A stretch of 64,000 nt of DNA from a virus, in the IMG/VR virus record IMGVR_UViG_3300032311_001250, positions 1 through 64,000 of that record; one strand, given 5' to 3'. This document shows, in pieces, positions 10,368-52,289 of this stretch; position 1 is the stretch's first letter, and each line of letters starts with the position of its first letter. The position numbers and the translations under genes are program-made. The notes under the pieces are model-generated. The model was not told where the DNA came from, made no database searches, and was given only the letters and a program-made list of their open reading frames with translations.

Positions 10368-10655
10368 ATGGCGAACCTTAATGAGGTGCGCGCTGCGCGC
10401 GTACTCAACCTCAATGATCTCGCTGACATTGAGGAGAAGTTTGGTGGCCTTGACAAGGTTGACCTGACACGTTTCACTGTCCTTCGCTACATTCTTTGGC
10501 TTGTCCTTCGTAAGGATGATCCCAAGGTCGATGAGCGCGCGGTTGGCGAGCGATTCTCGCTTGACACCATGCGCGAAGAGATCGATAAGGTGCTCCGTTC
10601 AAGCGGCCTCATTGGCAACGGTGAAGAGGGCATCGAGGGAAAAGCGGAGGCGTAA
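10368..10655 (+). CDS. Tail assembly chaperone (gpG-like)
   Basis: Lies between the tube genes and the TMP; slippery GGGAAAA near the 3' end. Confidence 0.8.
   Translation: MANLNEVRAARVLNLNDLADIEEKFGGLDKVDLTRFTVLRYILWLVLRKDDPKVDERAVGERFSLDTMREEIDKVLRSSGLIGNGEEGIEGKAEA
10637..10643 (+). other. Programmed -1 frameshift slippery site G GGA AAA
   Basis: XXXYYYZ heptamer in the correct phase; the -1 frame reads GKSGGVSWSEIDWGSI-MASYADAF without a stop into ORF 10685..10942. Confidence 0.85.
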
Positions 10656-10942
10656 GCTGGTCTGAGATCGACTGGGGGTCGATCATGGCGTCTTACGCAG
10701 ATGCCTTTGGTTATACCCCAAGCGATTTCATGCAACTCACGCTACCCCAGCTAAACGCATTCGCAAGATACATCGAACAGCGTGATAAGGAGATGAAGGA
10801 GGGTTCGTCCTCATCTTCATCTTCGAAGAGCTCTAAGAACCGAGCGAAGTTTGCCGAAGGTAGCAAGGGAATGAGCAACATCGGCTCACTTGAGCAGATG
10901 ATTTCCGTGTTCGGCAGGCCCGGTGGGCAGTCCGGCGGATGA
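10637..10942 (+). CDS. Tail assembly chaperone gpT part (frameshift product gpGT)
   Basis: FGYTPSDFMQLTLPQL motif typical of gpT; reached by the -1 frameshift. Confidence 0.8.
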   Translation, partial: GKSGGVSWSEIDWGSIMASYADAFGYTPSDFMQLTLPQLNAFARYIEQRDKEMKEGSSSSSSSKSSKNRAKFAEGSKGMSNIGSLEQMISVFGRPGGQSGG

Positions 10943-10955
10943 GTGGGGGTTTTGA

Positions 10956-13900
10956 GTGGCTGAGGGTCAGGGCGGGAATGTCGCAAGCGTAGGTCTATCT
11001 CTAGACTCGTCTGCGTTTAATTCTGGCGTAGCCCGCGCCCTTGCAGACATTTCCCGACTCCTCACCGGACTGCGCGAGCTTCAGGCTGCCAGCCAGAAAA
11101 CCAACCTCGGCCAACTCGGCGCTACTGGACGATCCGGAGCGGCTTCTGGCGCTTTTACCCCCGCAACATTTGCACGCGATATTCGTCGCCTTGCTATTCC
11201 GGCAATCCGTCAGCTTGATCGCGCCGCCTCCACGTCTCCGCTACTTACCGGAAGAATGGCTCGCGGTGCCGGGTTTGACCCTGCTGCCATGGCAGCGGCA
11301 ATCAATCGCCAGACAATTCCCGCAATCCAACGCCTCAACCGAACTATGGGGAGCTTCCGCGACTCCGACTTCATGAAGGAGTTTGAGGCTGGTCGAGCCG
11401 CCAGGGAGCGCGCTCACCGAGCAATGCTGGAGCGTGAGTCCAGGATTACGCAGGAAATTGCCAAGGGAACCACTAAGCGATTGGAGCGCGAGCAGGCGCG
11501 CATGATCCAGGCGCAGCAGGCTGAAAACCGCCGAGCGGCAGATCCAAACACCCAAGGCTCTCGACAGCTTCGTGCCGCAATTGAAATGCGCCGTCAACTT
11601 GCGGAGCAAAAGCGTTACGTTGAGGCGCACCCAACCCCAACGCAGACCCGCTATGCCGGAGGCGGAAGGGGCGGTGGCAGCCGTGAGGGTCGATGGGGTG
11701 ACGTTGCCGACCTGAAAGGCATTCCAAAGGACTGGCGCAAAGTCCTTATGCAGCTTGAGCAGCAGGGGTGGAGGATTGAGCCACGAAGTGGGGGCCATCC
11801 AGTTGCATACCCGACAAGCAAGCAATATAAGCCCATTACGTTCCCGAGCACGCCATCAGACCATCGTGACCTTCTAAACTTTATCTCGAAGGCACGACGA
11901 TCTGGCGGGGTTATCAATGGTCGTGGGTACCGAGATGAGGCCGGTCCATTTGTTGAGCGACAGCGTGGATTCTATGAAGACCCGTCAACCAAGAAACCGA
12001 CGCTTCGCGCCAACTATCGAATGGCTGCCCTTGAGGAACTTGTAACCTCTAACCTACCGAGCTATCCGCCGGTCATGCAACCGCGCCCTCGCGGCGTGTC
12101 TGGTGTCTCTGCGGCCGATCCTAACTCCCGGCAGCAAATTGAAAGAATGATCAAGGGCTTTGAGCGCGGCAAAGTGTTTGCCCCAAGCGCTAACCTTGAG
12201 GAAGGCCTCATTGCCACCGTGGCAAATGCTGCTGGACAGCAGTTCGTCGCATCCGGTAATGCCCGAACCATGGCGCTTCAAGCCATTGCAAAGCAAGGAA
12301 CTCCGCTTCGCAACGCCATTAGCGGCTTTAGCATGGAGTACCTAAAATCAAATCCAACAGAGTTTGGCCAGGGCGAGGTTGCCGCACTTAAAAAGGCTGG
12401 AGCATCTATTGCAAGGTCCGGCAAAACGCCAGTGCTCATCCGCGAGATTGCCGGTGGCGTAGAAGGCCTTGCTCCGCAGCGCCTTGGCCAGCTCGGTCTG
12501 CAACTCAATGCTCGAACCGGTCTTTCTGAGAGCGAGATCGCCATTGCTGCGTCGCGCATGCTTTCTAAGGTCCCGGCAGAGGTGCTTGCCGGAGATCCTC
12601 GTAAGATTGTCGCCGCAGGAAAGGGGCCAGCATATGAGGCCCTAAAGAGCGCCCTTTCTTCGGAAGTGCTCGGTGAGCATGTTATGGGGACAAGGTACAA
12701 GGGTGCCAGCGGTGGTGTTGCATTTAAGGGCATGATGGAGCAGATGCTGTATGCACGCGCGTACGGCAATAACCCGGCAACCGCCCAAATGCTCACCGCA
12801 GCGTTCTCCGGAGAGCCCTCAGAGATGAGTTCCTCTGTCAGGGCTGCACTTGGTCGTAGCCTTGGACCACAACTACGTCTCCGCGAACGAATCAATGCTG
12901 GAGAAGTTCCGGCAGGCATGGATCCAATCTTCAACTCGCTTCCTGGAGCATTGCAACTTATGCAAAGGGCACTCGGGACCGGCGGGCAGGGGCCAGGGTG
13001 GATTACCAACCCAGAAACACTTCGTGGAAACCCTGCCGGAGCGTTGCGTGCATTGCTTTCGCAGAAAACTATGTTTGGAGATCCGACTACAGCAATTGAG
13101 CGTCGTCTTGCCGCAAACATGCTTGCTGTCGGGCCTCAGGGTTTGTCTCCGTTCCTTTCCTCACTCGGCATGTACGGCTCCCGGGCAGAAGGTGCCCAGA
13201 TGGGCATGTTCGGCGCGTCTGAGGGTGGCCTGCTGCAAGCAACTAGCAACCCACGTCAGGCTATTGCACTGGCCCAGAAGGCAGCCGCACAATACCAAGA
13301 AGCACTAAAGACCGATCCGGCCCTGAAGGGCACCGGAAAGGCGGCCGTTACCGCCAGAGAGGCAGTGCTAACCTCCATTGTTGAGGGCGTCTATTCTGGC
13401 ATGCCTGCTCAAGCTGCGGCTGTGGCGCAGAAGGTGGCAACAAGCAGCCCACAGGCTGCTGCTGTCGGCCAAGAAATTGTGCAGGGGACCGCTGCGGCTG
13501 TCACTCAGGCTGCGGTAAATCCAAAGAGGAAGAAATTCACGTTTAAGCTTTCCGAGGAGGAGCAGGCTGCGTTCCTCAGTAAGCTTCGTGGACCAGTGGT
13601 TGCCCCCGCCTCACAGGGCGGCGGATATCAAATGTTCCCACCAGAAGAGCCAAGAACTGGGCTGCGCAGGCCAAATGCCCAGCGCATGACAGAGCTTGGT
13701 GGATACGGTATTTCTCCACGGGAAATCGGTGTTGCTGAGGGCAGCGTAAAGGCCCGTGCTGGTGGGTATCTGCCGTATAGCGAGTCTAGCCCACAGCGGC
13801 AAATGCAATACAACAATCGGCTTACACGCGGCTATGCAACGTTGATGGGTGAAATCGAGGGTCACCTCGCTCAACCAGGACCAAAGTCTACCGCCGCGCT

Positions 13901-16900
13901 TGCAGCAAAAATTCCAGAGGTTGAACGTCTATACAAGGTTGCTATGGAGCGTGGCGGCCTTGGCATGGACCCAATGAACGCCCATGCAGAAGTGGTTGCC
14001 AAGGCTCGAGCAATCCTTGGACCCGTAGCCATCCCGCAGTCAGAGCCCCAGCGGCCACCAATTGTTACCGCAACGCCGGTACCGACGACACCCGAAGGAA
14101 TTCCTTACATCAAGGTTCCAACTAGCGGAGAGTTGACTGAGGCCCAGATAAAAGCTGTCCAGGAGGGCCGAGCAAAGCTCTTAATGCCGCCTCCTCCACC
14201 TCGGCAAAAGACCGGAAGGAGCATTGGCGGTCCTATCCCGCCAACCAATGAGGGTTTGGCATCGCTCCTTGGCATTGGTCCGGCGCTGCAACTTGGTGCC
14301 GGATATCGTCCGTATCCTGGCGATCCAATGCTTGCCGCCCTTACGCGCGCTCAAGTAGAGCGACGCGCCCTCGCTCTGTCTCGTGGGCAGGTTGAGGGTC
14401 CCCTTATCGGGGCAAATCGTGGCGGCCTTGATCCGGTAACCGGTGCGTTTACTGTCAATCCGAAGATTCCAGAAGTCACCAGGATGCAAGGCGGAATGCT
14501 TCGTGCGCTTCTTACTAGCGAATCGCTGAGCGCAGCTGAAAAGGCACGACAGATCTCCCTTCTCAGCGGAAGCATTCCCGGCATGCGAGGGGTTCCAACG
14601 AGTATCCCAGAGGGCCAGTGGCAGAAGCTTGGGAGCGGGTCATATCGCGGACCAAAAGACCTCAAGCCAGTGTACGAGTCGCTCAAGCCGCTTATTGAGC
14701 AGTATGGTGCCGCTCGAACTATGGGCTACGTTGAACTTGCCAGGGGCTCTTCGCAAGGTTACGGGTATTGGGATCCAAAGAATAAAGGCCTGAATCTTTC
14801 TGGGCTTGAGGGACGAAGCTCTGGTGCAATCATGCGAACGTTGGTGCACGAGCTTGCGCATGGATCATTTGGCGAGGCAATGAGGACCGGCTACAAGCAG
14901 CCTGGTCAGGTTCAGATTTATGGCCCCAAGGGTGAAAGCATGGGCATGGCGCCGCATGGCGCTGCCTCTGCGCTTCTTGCCGGAGAGCCAACGAGAGTCG
15001 GCCACCTTGATCCAAAGTTCTACGAGATGCAGGCAAGGATTCTTAAGTCCGAGGGCGGGCTTTTCTCATCGTTGCTGTTCCATAACTTTGCGCAGGGTGG
15101 GTCGCTCCCAGGTGGGCTTGGGTTGCAGGGCACAGGCCCAGAATATGGTATTGGAAAGCTCGCCGCTCAACTGACTCCACAGCTAGAAAAACTTGCCTCG
15201 CCTCAGCAGCTTCTAGCCGCTCAGGCATTTACAAAGACTATGAACACCTTGGTAGGTGGTATTGAAGGATTTGCTAAGGGCAGGGGCAACCTCGAGCAGA
15301 CCAGCAACGGCATCGCAAAGGCGTTCAGAACGCTTGGAGAATCGTCCTCTGAATTCAAGCCAGAGTTTTTGCTCGGCGGTGCCGCCCGGCTATCCAACTT
15401 CATCCGGCAAAATGGCCAAGAAGGCCTGGCAAAGATGGCCCCAGAGCAGTTGCGTGCAGGAATCGTCAACTCCATCCTGTCTACCACGACCGGCGCACTC
15501 GGTCCGGGTCGGTTGCTGGGGCCAATGTCGCAGGTCAGTGGTGTTCATGGGCAGATCTCAGAGTTCCTCAAAAATGCCAGCGAAATGGAGAAGGGCTACC
15601 TGGCCATGGCGATCAACCCGCAGGCCTTTGTTAAGGAGCCCGGGGCAAAGCCATTCTACCAGCGTGGAGATGTAGATCATCTACAGAAGGCTCAGGAAAT
15701 CCTCTCAAACGTTGCGCAGGAGGCAGAACGCGCTGCAAGCGTCATCCCAGCAGCAACAAATGTTGCCGTTACGCGACGTGCCGGAATGCAGCTTCCTGTT
15801 ATCAATCGAGGACGCATGCTTCCGGCAGAACACTCGGTTGTTGTTTCCGGGCAGCGCTATGGGGCCGGTGGTGGTCAGTTTGTAGAAACAACTAATAGCG
15901 CCGGAGAGACTGTTCGGCAATTTGTTCCTGCTCAGCGCCTCCCAGAGGTAACCCCTGTACAGGGACCTATGTCTGGCTCCGGAGCCCTTGTCGTCTACGA
16001 CCCCCGCGTTGCTGCTCAATACGAGCAGAATAATCCACGCTTTGCCGGAAGGCCATATGGCGGTCGAGCAGAGACTCAACGCTTTACTCCGAATGCTGCT
16101 CTTCTCAACGAGGCATACATGCGCACGCTCAGCTACGGAGGACAGGGCTTCTTCGGTCGTGTAGGGTACGAGCGCCTGACAATGCCGGCACAAGAAATTG
16201 CAAGCCGGTACGCCGGATTCCGTGGCGCTGTTGGTCAGGCCGCATACAACAGCCCCCTCAGCCCAATTGGCGGCATGATGAGCCAGTTCCGACAGGCAAC
16301 AGGAACATATGCCGAGGCCGAAATGGGAAAGCAGCAGCTTCGCGCGGCGGCCCGCCAGCAATATCAAGGTCAAGTTGCCCAGGCTGATGCATTTGCCAAT
16401 GCCCAGACTCGATTGAATCGTGTTCTCGGTACTGGCACCGTAAACTTCCGAGAGCTTGGCAAGGTAATGAGCGAGGTCGGAAACGGCTTTACTTCTGGAG
16501 CTCTTTCTTCGCTGAGGTTCGCTGCAAACCTTGCCATTGGACAGCAGGCAGTGTTTGCGTTCGTCGGAATGATCAACCACCTCCGTGGCGGTATTATCGA
16601 GTTCAACGCAAAACTTGAGGCCGCTGCCGTAGGGTTTAACACACTCTTCCGAAACGCTGGATATACCGTCGAAGATGCGAGCGAGAAGACCAAGGCATTC
16701 ATTGGCGTTCTTCGTGACTTTGCCAACGTAACAAACTTCCGATTCGGCGACCTTGAGACCGCAGCCCTCCGCATGAAGGCATTCGGTTTCGAGGTGGATA
16801 ACGTTACCGCTGCCGCAAAGAACCAGATGCCAATCCTTGAGGAAATTCCTAATCCGTGGGCAAAACTGACCGGAGAGGCTAAGAGCTTCCGTGGCGCCCT

Positions 16901-19900
16901 CGTCAACATCGGCGATGCAGTTGCGGCACTCGGCGCAGAAGACGATAAACTCCGCCGTGTCACGTACGCCCTTGGCCAGATGAACTCAGCTGGTCGTGTC
17001 TATCAAAACGACATGATGCAGCTGGCAAACGCTGGTATTGCCGGATATGACATTCTTGCTAAGGCAGTTAAGAAGCAACTCGAGAATGACCCAGAGCTCA
17101 TGCGCGCAAATAAGGCCATCTATAACAAGTTGCTAAACCCAAGAACTGCCGTAGAGGAGATCCGCAAACTTGCCCGCGTTGGACGACTCGTTGGACCAGA
17201 GGCCGTGCAGGCCATTCTCCAGGGCCTTGGGCAGCAGTACGGCGGCGGCATGAAGGCGTTCTCCCGTACCTTCCAAGGAGCCATGACAACTCTTGCGGAT
17301 ACGTCGCAATCCCTTATTGCTACCGCGTTCAAGCCACTCTTCGATGTCACCCGAGATCTTGTCGTTCAGCTTGCCGACGCCTTCCAAACATCTGAGTGGA
17401 CGGGCAAGGCGGATAATGCCGCCAAGGTCATTCAGAAGGTTGCGGAAGCGCTCAGGTCAATGATCCCTGGAACGGCAGACACGATTATGAAGGTCCTTGG
17501 TAGCTTCTTTGAAACCTTTGCAAAACTTGGAAGCTCCCTTGGCAGTACCACAAATGGCTTGGGTAGCTTTGTTAATAACTTTGCTGCAGGAGTAAAGACC
17601 ATTGGAGATCTTCTTCAAAACAGCGTGATCCGCAACCTTTTGGTGGCCGGCGTTACCGCAAAACTCGTTATGGGAACAATTGCTTCCAACCCTCTCCTGG
17701 CAACCATTGGACTCATTGTGTCTTCCATTGGGGCAATCAGTAAGGCTATTGAGACAAACGCCTTTGGCTTTGGCGACCTTGCGGCAAAGGTGCAACCTGA
17801 ATTTGACAAGATCCTTGCAAATATCAGCGGAAACTTCATCCCGGGAGTAACGAGCGGCCTCTCCGACGGCCTGGGCGCGTTCTTTGCCATCATGGGGGCC
17901 TTCATCCGCGCAGTCACTCCGCTATTGGTCGCAATCCTGGACATCATTAGTAACGTTGGGTCTGCTATCAAGCCATTTGCCAGCGTTCTTGGCGTTGCGC
18001 TTGCGGCATTTGTTGGCAAGAAAGTCCTGATCGACGGCATGGCTGCCGCCATGGGTAAGTTTGCCGCCGCAACTGGCGCTGCCGTCGGCAGGGTCACATC
18101 GCTTAAGGAAAAGATGGCGCTGTATCAGGCGTTTGGAACCACCGGAAGGTACTACGGTGGCGACAAGCTAATGGCGATGCAAACTATGCAGCTGGCCAAT
18201 GGTCAAAGTCGAGCAGTTCTTGCCCCTGCCGAGCAGGGTGGAATTGGTATCGGCGGACCGACTGCCGTTCGCGCAGCCCTTGCCCTGGCGAATCAATTTG
18301 CCCTCCTGCAGACCGGAGCCCCACTCCAGACTGCCGGAGTCGTTCCGCCGCAAACGGTCCTTGACAAAAAGACCGGCCGCCAGGTCGCCAACCCAATGTA
18401 TCAACAGTTCCTTAATACCGCCGCATTTAATCCGCAGACAACTCTGGCCCAGTATCAAGCAATTCGCGGCGCACGAAAAGAAGAAATTATGCAGGAGTTG
18501 GCAATTCGAAGGAACAAGTCGCTGACCCCAGAACAGCGCCAGGCTGCTCTAGCAAATGTGTCAACTGCCGGACGCCAGGCATATCGACAATTCCGTGCAG
18601 ATACCGGAGGAGCTGGTTCTTCAAGCATGAAGGCCCTTGAGGCGTCATTTGCCTCAATGAGCCAGGGGATGATTGCCCAGCTCGGTCAGTTTATGGCCAA
18701 GATTCGATCCACTGGCCTCAGCTTGGAAACACTAAAGACTATTGCCAAGGCGGTTGGATCCCGACTTGCTGGCATGGCAACTGCTGCCATGGGCATGGGC
18801 ATGCTCTTTAGCGCTATCGGCGGAGCTTTGAATGTTAAGGAGCTTCAAGCAGTTGGAGATACGCTCACAACGATTGGGTTTGCAACAACAGGTTTGACCA
18901 TGATGTTTAACGCCTTGACTGTAGCTGTTGGCGCTGCCGCGCTGCCGCTTATGGCGCTTATGCTTGCAATTGGCGGCCTTATCGCGTTCATCAGTGCCAG
19001 CACAACTACCGAGCAGGATAAGAAAGGCGCAAAGCAAGTAAGCGAGATTATGGATCTCCGTGATCAGATGGTTGCAATGTACGGAGAGGAAGAGGCAAAG
19101 CGCAGGTTCCCGGACTACTTCCCAGAAAATCTTACGTTGCCGGAGAAAAAGTTGCGCATGGCCCTTCCCGGTGAAACCCCAGACTCTTATGATTGGATTA
19201 ACAATATCGCATTGAAACTTGATTATGACCCAAAGGATCTTGCCGCTGTCCGAAGTCAGTTCGGATTTACCGATGAGGATTTTGCAAAGACAAAAGCCTA
19301 TTTTGAGATGATGAATACCGATACCGGTCGAATTCTCTCCTTGTTCCAGGAAGGAAAAACGGCCGAGCAGATTGCTGAGATTACCGGTCTACCAATTGAT
19401 CGAATCAAGTTGCAGCTAAAGGAATTCTACGAGACAACTGGTTCTGACAATAAGGACTTTATTGCCAAGGTGCTTAGCGATAGCCTTGATGCAACCGGCG
19501 CTGCCCTGAAAGAAGCGCAGGAGGCTTACGAAAAGGCAATGGAGCCGTTCCAGAAGAACCTTAGCCGCCTGACTTCTCGAACCCAGGAAGTCATGCAGGC
19601 GCTCTTTGAGAGCGAGAAGAAGGCCCTGGAAGATGAGAAGAAGGCTGCGCTAGAAAATACGTTGGTAATGTACAACGGCGAGCAGGTCCGACTTGGCGTG
19701 CTGCAGCAGCAATATGATGCCATGAAGCTTCAGCGCGAAGAAATGGACCGCATGGCCGAACTTGAGAAACAGCGCACAGCTGCCGCAGAGGCCGCGCTCA
19801 ATATCTTTGACGCCAGTGTTGATCCGCTTGAGCGAGCTCGAGCGGCTCGAGAGTCCGCTCGAGATCTTTTCAATCAAGTTGGAACGTCAAGGCTTGACGA

Positions 19901-21560
19901 GATGCAGCGGGCGATTACCGCCGGCCAGGGGAATGTCGCCTATACAGAAACCGAGGCATTCTACAACGAGAAGATGGATGCCCTACAAAAGGATCAGGCC
20001 GAGCGAATGCGCACGGTCCAGGAGCAAATCGACGACTTGATGCAGAAGATCAAGGAAGGCAAGATTGGGACCGCCGCCGCACAGCAGCAGTTCAAGGATA
20101 TCTTTGCGCAAGCCGGTCTTGACCTCGACGTTGCCCAGACACAAGGGTACTCGTTTATGTCAGCCTTTGGCGATGGCTTCATGGATGCGATGAACACAAA
20201 TATTAAGGGCGTATTCTCCAAGCTGCCTGGACTTATCATGAAGGCGTTGGAAATGGTCAAGCAGGACAAGCTGTATCAGCAGGCCCTTGACGCCTATAAC
20301 GCCATCGTCACGATGGGTGACAAGATTACTGGCAAGGAATACAAGTCTAAGTATCTGCAGCCGCGCCTTGCTGGTTTGAACACTCTCTACAAAGATGCCG
20401 TTAAGTACCTTACCAGTGGCGAGGGCGTAAAGGCTGCCGGTGGCCTTGATAAGGCGCAAGCCATGATGGCCACACTGCTCAAGAAGAAGATCGAACTGGA
20501 AAACATGATCTCGGCAACTAGCGATACGGCTGTTATTGACAAGTCACTTGCATTGGCTGGAGACTCCTCATATCGCAGTGACATTATGGGTATCCAGTTG
20601 CCCGGCATGGGAAATCGCTCGCTTGTCGACTACCTCAGGCTTTACATGGGCTACGCTTCTCGTGACCGCGATAATTACATGAACAATCCGTATCTTGCCG
20701 GTGGCGCGGCTGGCGGTACAATCACGACTGCCGGTCAGTTCATGGTGGGCGAGCGCGGGCCGGAGATGATTGAAGTTGGGCCAAACGGCATTCGCGTCGT
20801 CCCAAACCACAAGCTTCCGTCCTGGCTGCGCTCGTCTGCCGGGGCTCTTGGCGCTGTCAATATGGGTCTGGGTGGCTATGCCTTTGGCACTGGTTCGGGC
20901 GACTCCGGAATGCGTGGACTGAAGTTTGACCCTAAACACATTAACCCGGAACACATTAGAAAATATGGCAACGTGTCAATGGCCGGAACCTGGCAGTCTG
21001 CCCTTGGCATGCTATTGATGCGTGCCGGGGCACCTATTGCCGCCCTTGCGTCAAGGGCCGGTAACGGACTTACTCGTGGAATGGAGTGGATGATTGGACC
21101 AGGACCACTTGGCAAGATGGCCGATAAGATTGTATCACTTGGCAGTAGCATCAATAATATTGATCCAGAAAATCTTGGACCAAAAATGAAGTTAATTAGC
21201 ACGCTCATGAAACCGCAAATGGACATGATGGCATTTGCGCAAGACGTTGGGTATACCAAGTATATGTCTACTGATTTCTTGAAAACTATGGCAGCTGCTG
21301 GTGGCACAATCGGCCTCACCGGGTTAGAAGCACAAGGCTTGATGGGTGCCCCTGGGTTCCTCATGAATCTTCTCAATGGTGGCCCACGATCAGTAACGCC
21401 ACCAAACGTGCATGCACACCCATCTCGATCACCAATTAGTGGTACAGTGAACATTCACAACCCGCAACTCAACTCTGCGGCCGACATTGACCGACTCGCC
21501 GAGCGCGTTGCGGAGGCTCAAGTGCGAGCACTTCGAAACTCCGGCTATGTAAAGAGGTAA
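10956..21560 (+). CDS. Giant tape measure protein with HicA-like, ddrB-ParB-like and zincin domains
   Basis: Follows G/GT. N-terminal LSLDSSAFNSG. Tape-measure domain about 16590-17350 (FANVTNFRFGDL...IGDAVAALG...ALGQM...QLANAGI). Hydrophobic helices. C-terminal AGG...VGERGPE...VVPN. Extra domains at about 11710-11925, 12010-12560 and 14660-15050. Confidence 0.92.
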   Translation: MAEGQGGNVASVGLSLDSSAFNSGVARALADISRLLTGLRELQAASQKTNLGQLGATGRSGAASGAFTPATFARDIRRLAIPAIRQLDRAASTSPLLTGRMARGAGFDPAAMAAAINRQTIPAIQRLNRTMGSFRDSDFMKEFEAGRAARERAHRAMLERESRITQEIAKGTTKRLEREQARMIQAQQAENRRAADPNTQGSRQLRAAIEMRRQLAEQKRYVEAHPTPTQTRYAGGGRGGGSREGRWGDVADLKGIPKDWRKVLMQLEQQGWRIEPRSGGHPVAYPTSKQYKPITFPSTPSDHRDLLNFISKARRSGGVINGRGYRDEAGPFVERQRGFYEDPSTKKPTLRANYRMAALEELVTSNLPSYPPVMQPRPRGVSGVSAADPNSRQQIERMIKGFERGKVFAPSANLEEGLIATVANAAGQQFVASGNARTMALQAIAKQGTPLRNAISGFSMEYLKSNPTEFGQGEVAALKKAGASIARSGKTPVLIREIAGGVEGLAPQRLGQLGLQLNARTGLSESEIAIAASRMLSKVPAEVLAGDPRKIVAAGKGPAYEALKSALSSEVLGEHVMGTRYKGASGGVAFKGMMEQMLYARAYGNNPATAQMLTAAFSGEPSEMSSSVRAALGRSLGPQLRLRERINAGEVPAGMDPIFNSLPGALQLMQRALGTGGQGPGWITNPETLRGNPAGALRALLSQKTMFGDPTTAIERRLAANMLAVGPQGLSPFLSSLGMYGSRAEGAQMGMFGASEGGLLQATSNPRQAIALAQKAAAQYQEALKTDPALKGTGKAAVTAREAVLTSIVEGVYSGMPAQAAAVAQKVATSSPQAAAVGQEIVQGTAAAVTQAAVNPKRKKFTFKLSEEEQAAFLSKLRGPVVAPASQGGGYQMFPPEEPRTGLRRPNAQRMTELGGYGISPREIGVAEGSVKARAGGYLPYSESSPQRQMQYNNRLTRGYATLMGEIEGHLAQPGPKSTAALAAKIPEVERLYKVAMERGGLGMDPMNAHAEVVAKARAILGPVAIPQSEPQRPPIVTATPVPTTPEGIPYIKVPTSGELTEAQIKAVQEGRAKLLMPPPPPRQKTGRSIGGPIPPTNEGLASLLGIGPALQLGAGYRPYPGDPMLAALTRAQVERRALALSRGQVEGPLIGANRGGLDPVTGAFTVNPKIPEVTRMQGGMLRALLTSESLSAAEKARQISLLSGSIPGMRGVPTSIPEGQWQKLGSGSYRGPKDLKPVYESLKPLIEQYGAARTMGYVELARGSSQGYGYWDPKNKGLNLSGLEGRSSGAIMRTLVHELAHGSFGEAMRTGYKQPGQVQIYGPKGESMGMAPHGAASALLAGEPTRVGHLDPKFYEMQARILKSEGGLFSSLLFHNFAQGGSLPGGLGLQGTGPEYGIGKLAAQLTPQLEKLASPQQLLAAQAFTKTMNTLVGGIEGFAKGRGNLEQTSNGIAKAFRTLGESSSEFKPEFLLGGAARLSNFIRQNGQEGLAKMAPEQLRAGIVNSILSTTTGALGPGRLLGPMSQVSGVHGQISEFLKNASEMEKGYLAMAINPQAFVKEPGAKPFYQRGDVDHLQKAQEILSNVAQEAERAASVIPAATNVAVTRRAGMQLPVINRGRMLPAEHSVVVSGQRYGAGGGQFVETTNSAGETVRQFVPAQRLPEVTPVQGPMSGSGALVVYDPRVAAQYEQNNPRFAGRPYGGRAETQRFTPNAALLNEAYMRTLSYGGQGFFGRVGYERLTMPAQEIASRYAGFRGAVGQAAYNSPLSPIGGMMSQFRQATGTYAEAEMGKQQLRAAARQQYQGQVAQADAFANAQTRLNRVLGTGTVNFRELGKVMSEVGNGFTSGALSSLRFAANLAIGQQAVFAFVGMINHLRGGIIEFNAKLEAAAVGFNTLFRNAGYTVEDASEKTKAFIGVLRDFANVTNFRFGDLETAALRMKAFGFEVDNVTAAAKNQMPILEEIPNPWAKLTGEAKSFRGALVNIGDAVAALGAEDDKLRRVTYALGQMNSAGRVYQNDMMQLANAGIAGYDILAKAVKKQLENDPELMRANKAIYNKLLNPRTAVEEIRKLARVGRLVGPEAVQAILQGLGQQYGGGMKAFSRTFQGAMTTLADTSQSLIATAFKPLFDVTRDLVVQLADAFQTSEWTGKADNAAKVIQKVAEALRSMIPGTADTIMKVLGSFFETFAKLGSSLGSTTNGLGSFVNNFAAGVKTIGDLLQNSVIRNLLVAGVTAKLVMGTIASNPLLATIGLIVSSIGAISKAIETNAFGFGDLAAKVQPEFDKILANISGNFIPGVTSGLSDGLGAFFAIMGAFIRAVTPLLVAILDIISNVGSAIKPFASVLGVALAAFVGKKVLIDGMAAAMGKFAAATGAAVGRVTSLKEKMALYQAFGTTGRYYGGDKLMAMQTMQLANGQSRAVLAPAEQGGIGIGGPTAVRAALALANQFALLQTGAPLQTAGVVPPQTVLDKKTGRQVANPMYQQFLNTAAFNPQTTLAQYQAIRGARKEEIMQELAIRRNKSLTPEQRQAALANVSTAGRQAYRQFRADTGGAGSSSMKALEASFASMSQGMIAQLGQFMAKIRSTGLSLETLKTIAKAVGSRLAGMATAAMGMGMLFSAIGGALNVKELQAVGDTLTTIGFATTGLTMMFNALTVAVGAAALPLMALMLAIGGLIAFISASTTTEQDKKGAKQVSEIMDLRDQMVAMYGEEEAKRRFPDYFPENLTLPEKKLRMALPGETPDSYDWINNIALKLDYDPKDLAAVRSQFGFTDEDFAKTKAYFEMMNTDTGRILSLFQEGKTAEQIAEITGLPIDRIKLQLKEFYETTGSDNKDFIAKVLSDSLDATGAALKEAQEAYEKAMEPFQKNLSRLTSRTQEVMQALFESEKKALEDEKKAALENTLVMYNGEQVRLGVLQQQYDAMKLQREEMDRMAELEKQRTAAAEAALNIFDASVDPLERARAARESARDLFNQVGTSRLDEMQRAITAGQGNVAYTETEAFYNEKMDALQKDQAERMRTVQEQIDDLMQKIKEGKIGTAAAQQQFKDIFAQAGLDLDVAQTQGYSFMSAFGDGFMDAMNTNIKGVFSKLPGLIMKALEMVKQDKLYQQALDAYNAIVTMGDKITGKEYKSKYLQPRLAGLNTLYKDAVKYLTSGEGVKAAGGLDKAQAMMATLLKKKIELENMISATSDTAVIDKSLALAGDSSYRSDIMGIQLPGMGNRSLVDYLRLYMGYASRDRDNYMNNPYLAGGAAGGTITTAGQFMVGERGPEMIEVGPNGIRVVPNHKLPSWLRSSAGALGAVNMGLGGYAFGTGSGDSGMRGLKFDPKHINPEHIRKYGNVSMAGTWQSALGMLLMRAGAPIAALASRAGNGLTRGMEWMIGPGPLGKMADKIVSLGSSINNIDPENLGPKMKLISTLMKPQMDMMAFAQDVGYTKYMSTDFLKTMAAAGGTIGLTGLEAQGLMGAPGFLMNLLNGGPRSVTPPNVHAHPSRSPISGTVNIHNPQLNSAADIDRLAERVAEAQVRALRNSGYVKR

Positions 21561-51932: not shown

Positions 51933-52289
51933 ATGGACTCAAAAGAGCTGAAACTGGTGAGCCAAAAGGCCGAGTGTCTCCACTCATCGGCACTCATCCA
52001 AACACCAGACGGGTTGAAGTCGTATGGTCTTCCGGTTGACACCGATGATTGCATGCAATGCGCATGGCGAGATTTTGAGCAGTCGGTCGGCAAGCGGGTT
52101 GAGCTCCCTTCGATGCAGATCTTCTGGTGGAATTACAGCGACGACAAGGAACCACATTGGGTTGCCGAAATCATGCCGCTCGACTTGCTCCCGGATGTTG
52201 CGTCAATTGTTGGACGCGGGGAAACGCCCGGTAAAGCCATCCGAGATATGTCTCGTCAGCTCAGGACTTTTTTGAGTCAGCACCAATAA
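51933..52289 (+). CDS. HicB-like domain protein
   Basis: GTAGGAG RBS; C-terminal WVAEIMPLDLLPDVASIVGRGETPGKAIRDMSRQL resembles the HicB antitoxin N-domain pattern (LP...GET..EA). Confidence 0.55.
   Translation: MDSKELKLVSQKAECLHSSALIQTPDGLKSYGLPVDTDDCMQCAWRDFEQSVGKRVELPSMQIFWWNYSDDKEPHWVAEIMPLDLLPDVASIVGRGETPGKAIRDMSRQLRTFLSQHQ

Follow-up and report, generated by a model that had tools for sequence, protein, structure and literature searches.

The tape measure protein (TMP) encoded in the stretch of viral DNA considered here carries, close to its N-terminus, a small domain that is well supported by sequence comparison as a divergent member of the HicA superfamily of toxin RNases, within a phage-borne subfamily marked by a TPSDxR signature (phrog_2089). 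The stretch, hereafter the window, comprises positions 1 to 64,000 of the IMG/VR viral record IMGVR_UViG_3300032311_001250, the opening 64 kb of a record of 78,442 bp that is ~90% complete. TMPs are usually seen as rulers and channel formers of the phage tail, sometimes with cell-wall hydrolase motifs. We propose, at roughly even odds (a probability of about 0.5), that the domain is an RNase or RNA-binding effector that is delivered with the virion as one part of a polyvalent cassette in the N-terminal portion of the TMP. An original prediction, made from the letters alone, had described a HicA-like domain of the type of the dsRBD (a domain that binds double-stranded RNA), with a G-x-H histidine, embedded in this TMP; family profiles, the predicted fold and residue conservation all uphold that description.

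The peptide quoted in the original prediction (...YAGGGRGGGSREGRWGDVADLKGIPKDWRKVLMQLEQQGWRIEPRSGGHPVAYPTSKQYKPITFPSTPSDHRDLLNFISKARRSGGV...) is found exactly in the translation of the TMP gene, and the region given there for the domain, 11710-11925, was right, as the family profile puts the domain at 11715-11924. The glycine-rich linker noted ahead of the domain is also in place, and its residues G237-S242 are invariant across three TMP homologues. The proposal that the domain be compared with the HicA_toxin profile of Pfam (PF07927) had a divided outcome: the direct match is below threshold (E 0.037, 14.6 bits against a cut-off of 27 bits) and covers only profile positions 1-27, the N-terminal half, but 26 of the 108 small relatives of the domain match PF07927 at E≤0.01, the best at 1.9e-6, and no other family recurs among them. 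The other Pfam match of the domain alone, to a Mu-transposase helix-turn-helix, was at chance level; searches of NCBIfam and of PDB sequences with the domain alone returned nothing useful, and a word-indexed homologue search gave zero candidates. Neither Adephagia gp90 nor gp91, both validated experimentally, is recognised by Pfam, and we therefore regard its HicA model as insensitive to phage variants. The family phrog_2089, listed as of 'unknown function', matches the domain with an E-value of 3.4e-12, and a phmmer search of 1.84 billion representative proteins gave 191 matches at E≤1e-3, the majority of them free-standing proteins of 63-90 residues, which is the size of HicA. Three of ten relatives looked up (P0007, P0011 and P0012) bear the IMG/JGI name 'predicted RNA binding protein YcfA (HicA-like mRNA interferase family)', and SEA-PHAGES gives the annotation 'HicA-like toxin' to two actinophage members that share the signature, Sour gp71 and Indlovu gp82. 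When the 108-sequence profile was compared with the PDB, the HicA structures 1whz, 6g26, 4c26, 4p78 and 5yrz were among the six best matches, each at an E-value of ~0.1-0.2, with the GGH of the family aligned to the KGGH of 1whz; hhalign against a profile of the E. coli type of HicA gave P 4.2e-5 and a probability of 69.5%, so that H281 of the TMP falls on His23, which is catalytic in E. coli HicA.

The structural comparison points in the same direction. With a multiple sequence alignment of the 108 sequences, AlphaFold2 (AF2) predicted the domain with a mean local confidence score (pLDDT) of 81.6, exceeding 90 across most of residues 20-80; this model replaced a single-sequence one with a pLDDT of 54.7. 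Its elements are a helix at residues 19-30, strands at 34-36 and 44-46, a short third strand, and a helix at 64-76. Searched against the PDB with Foldseek, the model found HicA chains at ranks 1, 2, 3, 6, 8 and 10, with E-values of 0.3-1.1 and template-modelling (TM) scores of up to 0.67 when normalised to the target. Among the 48,161 cluster representatives compared by VIA-align, HicA structures made up four of the top five (1whz, Z 5.0; 5yrz, 4.6; 6g26, 4.4; 4p78, 4.0), with 6hpb at Z 3.2 and each HicA alignment spanning 57-62 residues, although Z-scores of 4-5 are modest beside the 5.7-9.0 found among bona fide HicAs (PMC6159526) and values below 8 may reflect no more than a common arrangement. 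The best matches in BFVD were phage 'HicA-like toxin' models, led by that of Mycobacterium phage Thonko (E 4.2e-4, TM 0.76, root-mean-square deviation 1.8 Å over 65 columns). We hold to the HicA type of fold, despite the modest Z-scores, because two structure aligners agree with the sequence profiles; the predicted arrangement is the dsRBD-like alpha-beta-beta-beta-alpha.

The hallmark of HicA toxins is a single conserved His in beta2 together with a Gly in the beta1-beta2 loop, and mutation of this His abolishes RNase activity or toxicity (PMC6159526, PMC11594946); the residues concerned include H23 of EcHicA, G22/H24 of BpsHicA, G26/H28 of YpHicA3 and H36 of StpHicA (PMC11594946, PMC6159526). 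In the TMP domain the equivalent GGH sits just before strand 2 of the AF2 model, with the codon of His281 at 11796-11798. The Gly and His of the G-x-H are invariant in all three TMP copies, and across the family the His281 position holds a His in 93 of 108 members (86%). Stronger than the G-x-H is a subfamily signature consisting of G271, W272, T299-P300-S301-D302, R304, N308, R314 and G317, which can be written GW...G-x-H...TPSDxR...N...RRxG. Among the 108 aligned sequences the TPSDxR...N columns keep T in 94, P in 93, S in 92, D in 87, R in 102 and N in 103; H303, within this stretch, is variable and is an Ala in the TMP homologue P0003. As we place it, the signature region would correspond to part of the active-site face that contacts HicB in S. 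pneumoniae HicA (PMC6159526). The domain is basic, with 11 Lys and Arg against 5 Asp and Glu and a net charge of +6. Between this phage and a related complete phage (G001, see below), the ratio of nonsynonymous to synonymous substitution rates is ~0.09 for the domain, 0.10 for the TMP_3 core and 0.20 for the whole TMP, all of them approximate values with synonymous sites near saturation; the HicA-like domain is under strong purifying selection.

That the carrier is a genuine siphovirus TMP is clear from its family signature, its position and its hydrophobic segments. Its gene translates as an uninterrupted single frame of 3,534 residues, in which the Pfam TMP_3 family scores 42.3 bits against a cut-off of 41 bits and which phrog_1686, a TMP family, matches at E 1.6e-17; hydrophobic segments lie at residues 2237-2359 and 2649-2684. 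The gene follows those for protease/scaffold, capsid, adaptor and tail proteins and two open reading frames (ORFs) of the size of tail assembly chaperones, the first of which (95 residues) matches phrog_2115, 'tail protein', at E 3.8e-06, and it precedes very large distal-tail genes. The recognisable ruler part of the protein begins only at about residue 1850, identity to P0003 climbing to 80-92% from residue 1851 onwards. Of the long portion ahead of it, residues 1-350, which include the HicA-like domain, are 68-98% identical to the TMP of the related complete phage and are the best-conserved non-ruler part, identity over residues 350-1800 being 20-60%. Over the first 50 residues (10956-11105) the three homologues share 94-98% identity, much more than in the remaining protein; these residues are probably a segment that docks to a chaperone, the terminator or the portal.

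Three of the 191 relatives are TMPs: the one in the window, P0003 (3,397 residues, 80% identity in the domain) and P0004 (an 841-residue fragment, 66%). The 3,397-residue homologue is carried by G001 (IMGVR_UViG_3300032269_001670), a complete related phage of 85.7 kb with terminal repeats, and this is the one related complete phage that a search with the N-terminal TMP alignment found in IMG/VR; both phage genomes have one copy of the family, inside the TMP. The same alignment found no relatives in 185,579 GTDB species genomes, a single-domain search found none across viral contigs, and a DNA-level search with the 5' part of the TMP gene gave no match in phage records. The architecture of HicA within a TMP is limited to a small clade with three TMP representatives and one other complete IMG/VR phage. 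Elsewhere the subfamily occurs in other multidomain proteins, at the N-terminus, at the C-terminus or as tandem copies, a pattern known from polyvalent proteins (PMC5512222). In the metagenomic protein P0020 (980 residues) a HicA-like domain at residues 404-472 is joined by a RadC-like JAB domain at the C-terminus (E 2.8e-32), such a RadC-JAB fusion being typical of polyvalent proteins, and the metagenomic P0007 and P0070 have two tandem full copies each; from these architectures we conclude that the module moves about among multidomain proteins of phages and mobile genetic elements. Three further metagenomic proteins, P0009, P0071 and P0093, hold three to four tandem repeats that correspond only to the domain's N-terminal half (..RGWRVE[RK]..G[ND].L[LV][FY]P..) and in which the His at the catalytic position is replaced by Asn or Asp; the family seems to have given rise here to a degenerate repeat form. 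The free-standing actinophage homologues lie in the early/non-structural region of lytic phages and not among the tail genes.

Table 1. Features of the TMP gene and of other loci in the window (positions within the 64,000 nucleotides; residues are numbered along the TMP)
Feature	Position	Strand	Basis
Two small ORFs, 95 and 85 residues, at the position of tail assembly chaperones, directly 5' of the TMP gene	10368-10942	+	ORF list; phrog_2115
TMP gene, GTG start, 3,534 residues, HicA-like domain near N-terminus	10956-21560	+	single open frame; TMP_3 and phrog_1686 matches
Gly-rich linker GGGRGGGS, residues 235-242, ahead of the domain	11658-11681	+	translation
HicA-like domain, residues 254-323, TPSDxR subfamily / phrog_2089	11715-11924	+	family-profile match, E 2.5e-32
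G279-G280-H281, G-x-H hallmark with putative catalytic His at start of beta2	11790-11798	+	translation, alignments
Subfamily signature T299-P300-S301-D302-x-R304...N308, beta3/alpha2 junction	11850-11881	+	108-member alignment
ddrB-ParB-like segment (weak), residues 351-449, directly after the HicA-like domain	12006-12302	+	PF18763
HELAH (HExxH) zincin-like motif, residues 1298-1302	14847-14861	+	conserved in TMP of G001
Pfam TMP_3 core, residues 1973-2122	16872-17321	+	Pfam scan
118-residue ORF, candidate orphan HicB-like partner (unsupported)	51933-52289	+	conserved in G001

Two further features lie in the N-terminal portion besides the HicA-like domain. The segment that follows it resembles ddrB-ParB (PF18763) at E 0.0025 in a segment scan and at E 0.0013 in the homologue P0003, both below the Pfam cut-off and to be taken as suggestive. 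Much farther along lies a zincin-like HExxH motif, read HELAH in this TMP and HELSH in that of G001, with the shared flanks RSSG..RT..HEL.HG.F.E.MR.GY; the sole Pfam match of this region is WLM at E 0.15, with no match to an MPTase family. By analogy with polyvalent proteins and with gp96 of phage P23-45, this motif may belong to an autoprocessing peptidase.

The domain belongs to the HicA superfamily, but what surrounds it is not a HicAB module. Its neighbours are the tail chaperone-like ORFs and the remaining TMP, with nothing HicB-like adjoining, and a six-frame search of the 78-kb genome for the HicB family PF15919 found none at E≤10. A 118-residue ORF far downstream is a candidate orphan HicB-like partner for which we found no support in Pfam or PHROGs, in PDB searches with its own sequence or with a profile, in an hhalign comparison with the validated Adephagia antitoxin gp90, or in the ESM Atlas, its best scores being E 0.27 in PHROGs to an unrelated family and 0.85 in the ESM Atlas to unnamed viral clusters; this negative is a weak one, as Pfam misses gp90 too. 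The ORF is 94% identical in G001 and 64-65% identical in two other metagenomic contigs, and has invariant Cys residues (C15, C40 and C43) and no detectable family.

Let us consider how such a domain might act. On the favoured view, the N-terminal portion of ~1,850 residues, which takes no part in the ruler, has captured a HicA-like module in this phage as in both relatives known, and there, beside the ddrB-ParB-like segment and upstream of the HExxH motif, the module would form part of a polyvalent cargo. The TMP would be packed in the tail lumen and, upon infection, expelled through the envelope, so that the N-terminal cassette would enter the cytoplasm shortly before the DNA does, following the course shown for the RNA polymerase fused to the TMP of P23-45. 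There the basic module could bind host RNA, and probably cleave it by means of His281, before the phage genes are expressed, and the outcome would be host shut-off or the disabling of an RNA-dependent defence. A bolder form of this scenario regards the whole TMP as a polyvalent injection platform: the module would be an RNase that depends on His281 for its activity and that, set free in the cytoplasm ahead of the genome, perhaps through the HExxH zincin, would destroy host transcripts or defence RNAs before phage genes are expressed, with a separate immunity protein guarding the producer cell, the two together making up a virion-borne and physically split toxin-antitoxin system. We put this stronger form forward tentatively and think it rather doubtful.

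Several points weigh against a virion-delivered effector. The direct Pfam match and the structural Z-scores described above are modest, R304 and N308 are better conserved among the 108 relatives than His281, and the His-less and tandem copies in other proteins are what one would expect of a binding module. No HicB was found, and the literature searched held no activity data for any member of the TPSDxR subfamily or phrog_2089. The phage HicA-like proteins shown to be toxic, Adephagia gp91 and Amelie gp73, have canonical-type sequences and lie outside this subfamily; their toxicity was considered as support and dropped as direct evidence, gp91 being a canonical-type HicA and not a TPSDxR protein. 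LeBron gp82, an orphan phage HicA-like protein of the canonical type, is non-toxic. Also to be weighed are the room that the tail lumen offers to a trimer of the TMP with its cargo folded, and possible processing of the N-terminus.

In the main rival reading, the domain is a non-catalytic module for binding nucleic acid or protein that, together with the ParB-like segment, holds the leading end of the DNA or an RNA, or docks the TMP N-terminus to a chaperone, the terminator or the portal during tail assembly and DNA piloting, and does not cut RNA. The positions conserved above all others, G271/W272 and R304/N308/G317, do not include His281; copies that are tandem or have lost the His occur in P0036, P0009, P0071 and P0093; the orphan phage HicA-like protein is non-toxic and no antitoxin was found; and the domain lies within the best-conserved non-ruler part of the TMP. 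Against such a role, G-x-H is retained by each of the three TMP copies and by 86% of family members, HicA-fold domains have no known assembly role, and the free-standing actinophage homologues sit among early/non-structural genes and not tail genes. We consider this rival unlikely, if the one most worth keeping in mind. A quite different possibility is that the domain acts as a toxin late in the producer cell, either in host shut-off or as half of an addiction-like split pair with a separate inhibitor such as the 118-residue ORF. Large amounts of the TMP are produced in late infection, that ORF is 94% identical in G001, and to the eye its C-terminal ...GRGETPGKAI... recalls the N-domains of HicB. 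Yet every comparison listed above failed to detect HicB similarity in it, and there is no reason why an RNase meant for late shut-off should be tethered to a protein of the virion; we think this possibility improbable.

The original prediction had offered two roles, an injected RNase or a decoy that engages host HicB antitoxins. The former is plausible, and we prefer it, given the precedent of P23-45 gp96 (PMC10770324). A decoy, that is, an inactive HicA mimic binding host HicB, would be consistent with the finding that in HicAB complexes HicB binds to that face of HicA which bears the His (PMC11594946, PMC6159526), a face that is conserved here. We nevertheless hold it to be the least probable of the roles considered, because titration of the antitoxin would activate the host toxin: sequestering HicB frees the host HicA and promotes abortive infection, to the harm of the phage. 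The domain is moreover too divergent from canonical HicAs, as its sub-threshold Pfam score indicates, to be an obvious mimic of a host toxin, and it has kept a catalytic-type His and a basic surface of the RNA-binding type with no sign of decoy-like decay. As to whether the domain is a HicA at all, each of the HicA scores is modest individually, and the similarity might be convergent, the true kinship being with some other family of small alpha/beta domains. The RyR-repeat domains of bacteria are an example: with E-values of 0.17-0.7, the family profile matches their chains 6ug5, 6uag and 4n05 along the entire domain. Yet no RyR chain appears in the top 50 of either Foldseek or VIA-align, both of which are led by HicA chains; the RyR Pfam family is matched by no member of the subfamily, against the 26 that match PF07927; and the hhalign comparison with HicA stands at P 4.2e-5. 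An RyR identity was rejected on the structure rankings and Pfam, and we think any non-HicA origin very improbable.

One other fusion in the window may be mentioned. The prohead protease ORF of 701 residues (819-2924, + strand) matches phrog_80 and related families at residues ~100-190 and has an extra domain at residues 295-434 that matches phrog_3636, 'DNA binding protein', at E 1e-22; an accessory domain has therefore been fused to the head maturation protease/scaffold.

The TMP domain may be set against the systems already known. Compared with the HicA toxins of type II HicAB modules (PF07927 / COG1724; 1whz, 4p78, 4c26/6g26, 5yrz, 6hpb), the TMP domain has the same ~65 residues, the predicted dsRBD-like fold, the loop Gly, the His of beta2, the basic character and the C-terminal helix followed by a Gly. 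It differs from them in falling below the Pfam cut-off, in having TPSDxR...N where canonical HicAs have their P-x-H region, and in lying within a virion protein of 3,534 residues with no adjacent or detectable HicB, instead of being a free protein of 6-10 kDa. The free-standing phrog_2089 proteins (Gordonia phage Sour gp71, Mycobacterium phage Indlovu gp82 and that of Thonko) share its signature at ~31-38% identity and TM 0.76, and are likewise orphans with no recognisable antitoxin, a status established for the actinophage records; they are small early/non-structural gene products, whereas here the domain is fused into a TMP.

The stringing together of several conflict-type domains recalls polyvalent proteins, in which RNases derived from toxin-antitoxin toxins (PBECR/RelE-like), ddrB-ParB and zincin peptidases occur on one polypeptide that is delivered with DNA (Iyer et al., 2017, PMC5512222), and the MuF-fused polymorphic toxins (Zhang et al., 2012, PMC3482391). 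Those carriers are packaged in the head (MuF, DarB-like) or delivered by a type IV secretion system, in contrast to a TMP, and in the present protein the ddrB-ParB and zincin resemblances are below threshold; neither paper mentions HicA or tape measure proteins. Actinobacterial contractile injection systems provide another parallel in their Sle1-type effectors, which are modular and TMP-related and one of which forms a toxin-antitoxin pair (PMC13277306). They share with the present protein a TMP-like platform with exchangeable domains, but they are cargo of bacterial intracellular injection systems with their functional domains at the C-terminus, and not the working TMP of an infectious siphovirus. 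The literature was searched for a HicA-TMP fusion and for HicA in polyvalent or polymorphic toxins, and no report was found; phage proteins of the HicA-like kind are known, and so are enzymes fused to TMPs, and it is their combination that we have not found described.

If the proposed role is correct, it would link toxin-antitoxin domains with the virion-delivered 'polyvalent' effectors, and would provide a function for phrog_2089, a widespread and uncharacterised family to which annotation pipelines attach the name 'HicA-like toxin' with no evidence for it. The size of HicA (~8 kDa) might also suggest a rule for the cargo that is able to pass a tail lumen of ~4 nm. The closest precedent is gp96 of Thermus phage P23-45, a TMP of 5,002 residues whose N-terminal virion RNA polymerase transcribes the pre-early genes and which has metallopeptidase and transmembrane domains downstream (Chaban et al., 2024, PMC10770324). 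Both are giant TMPs with an N-terminal part separate from length measurement, followed by a metallopeptidase-type motif (in the present TMP, zincin-like) and transmembrane segments. The cargo of gp96 is a two-barrel RNA polymerase of proven activity, which virions contain and which acts on nucleic acid once a new cell is infected, whereas the putative cargo of the present TMP is a small RNase-like domain with ParB-like and zincin-like segments. A toxin-type RNase in the N-terminus of a TMP would extend the P23-45 case to a take-over of the host, or a counter-measure to its defences, that siphoviruses launch before their own genes are expressed.

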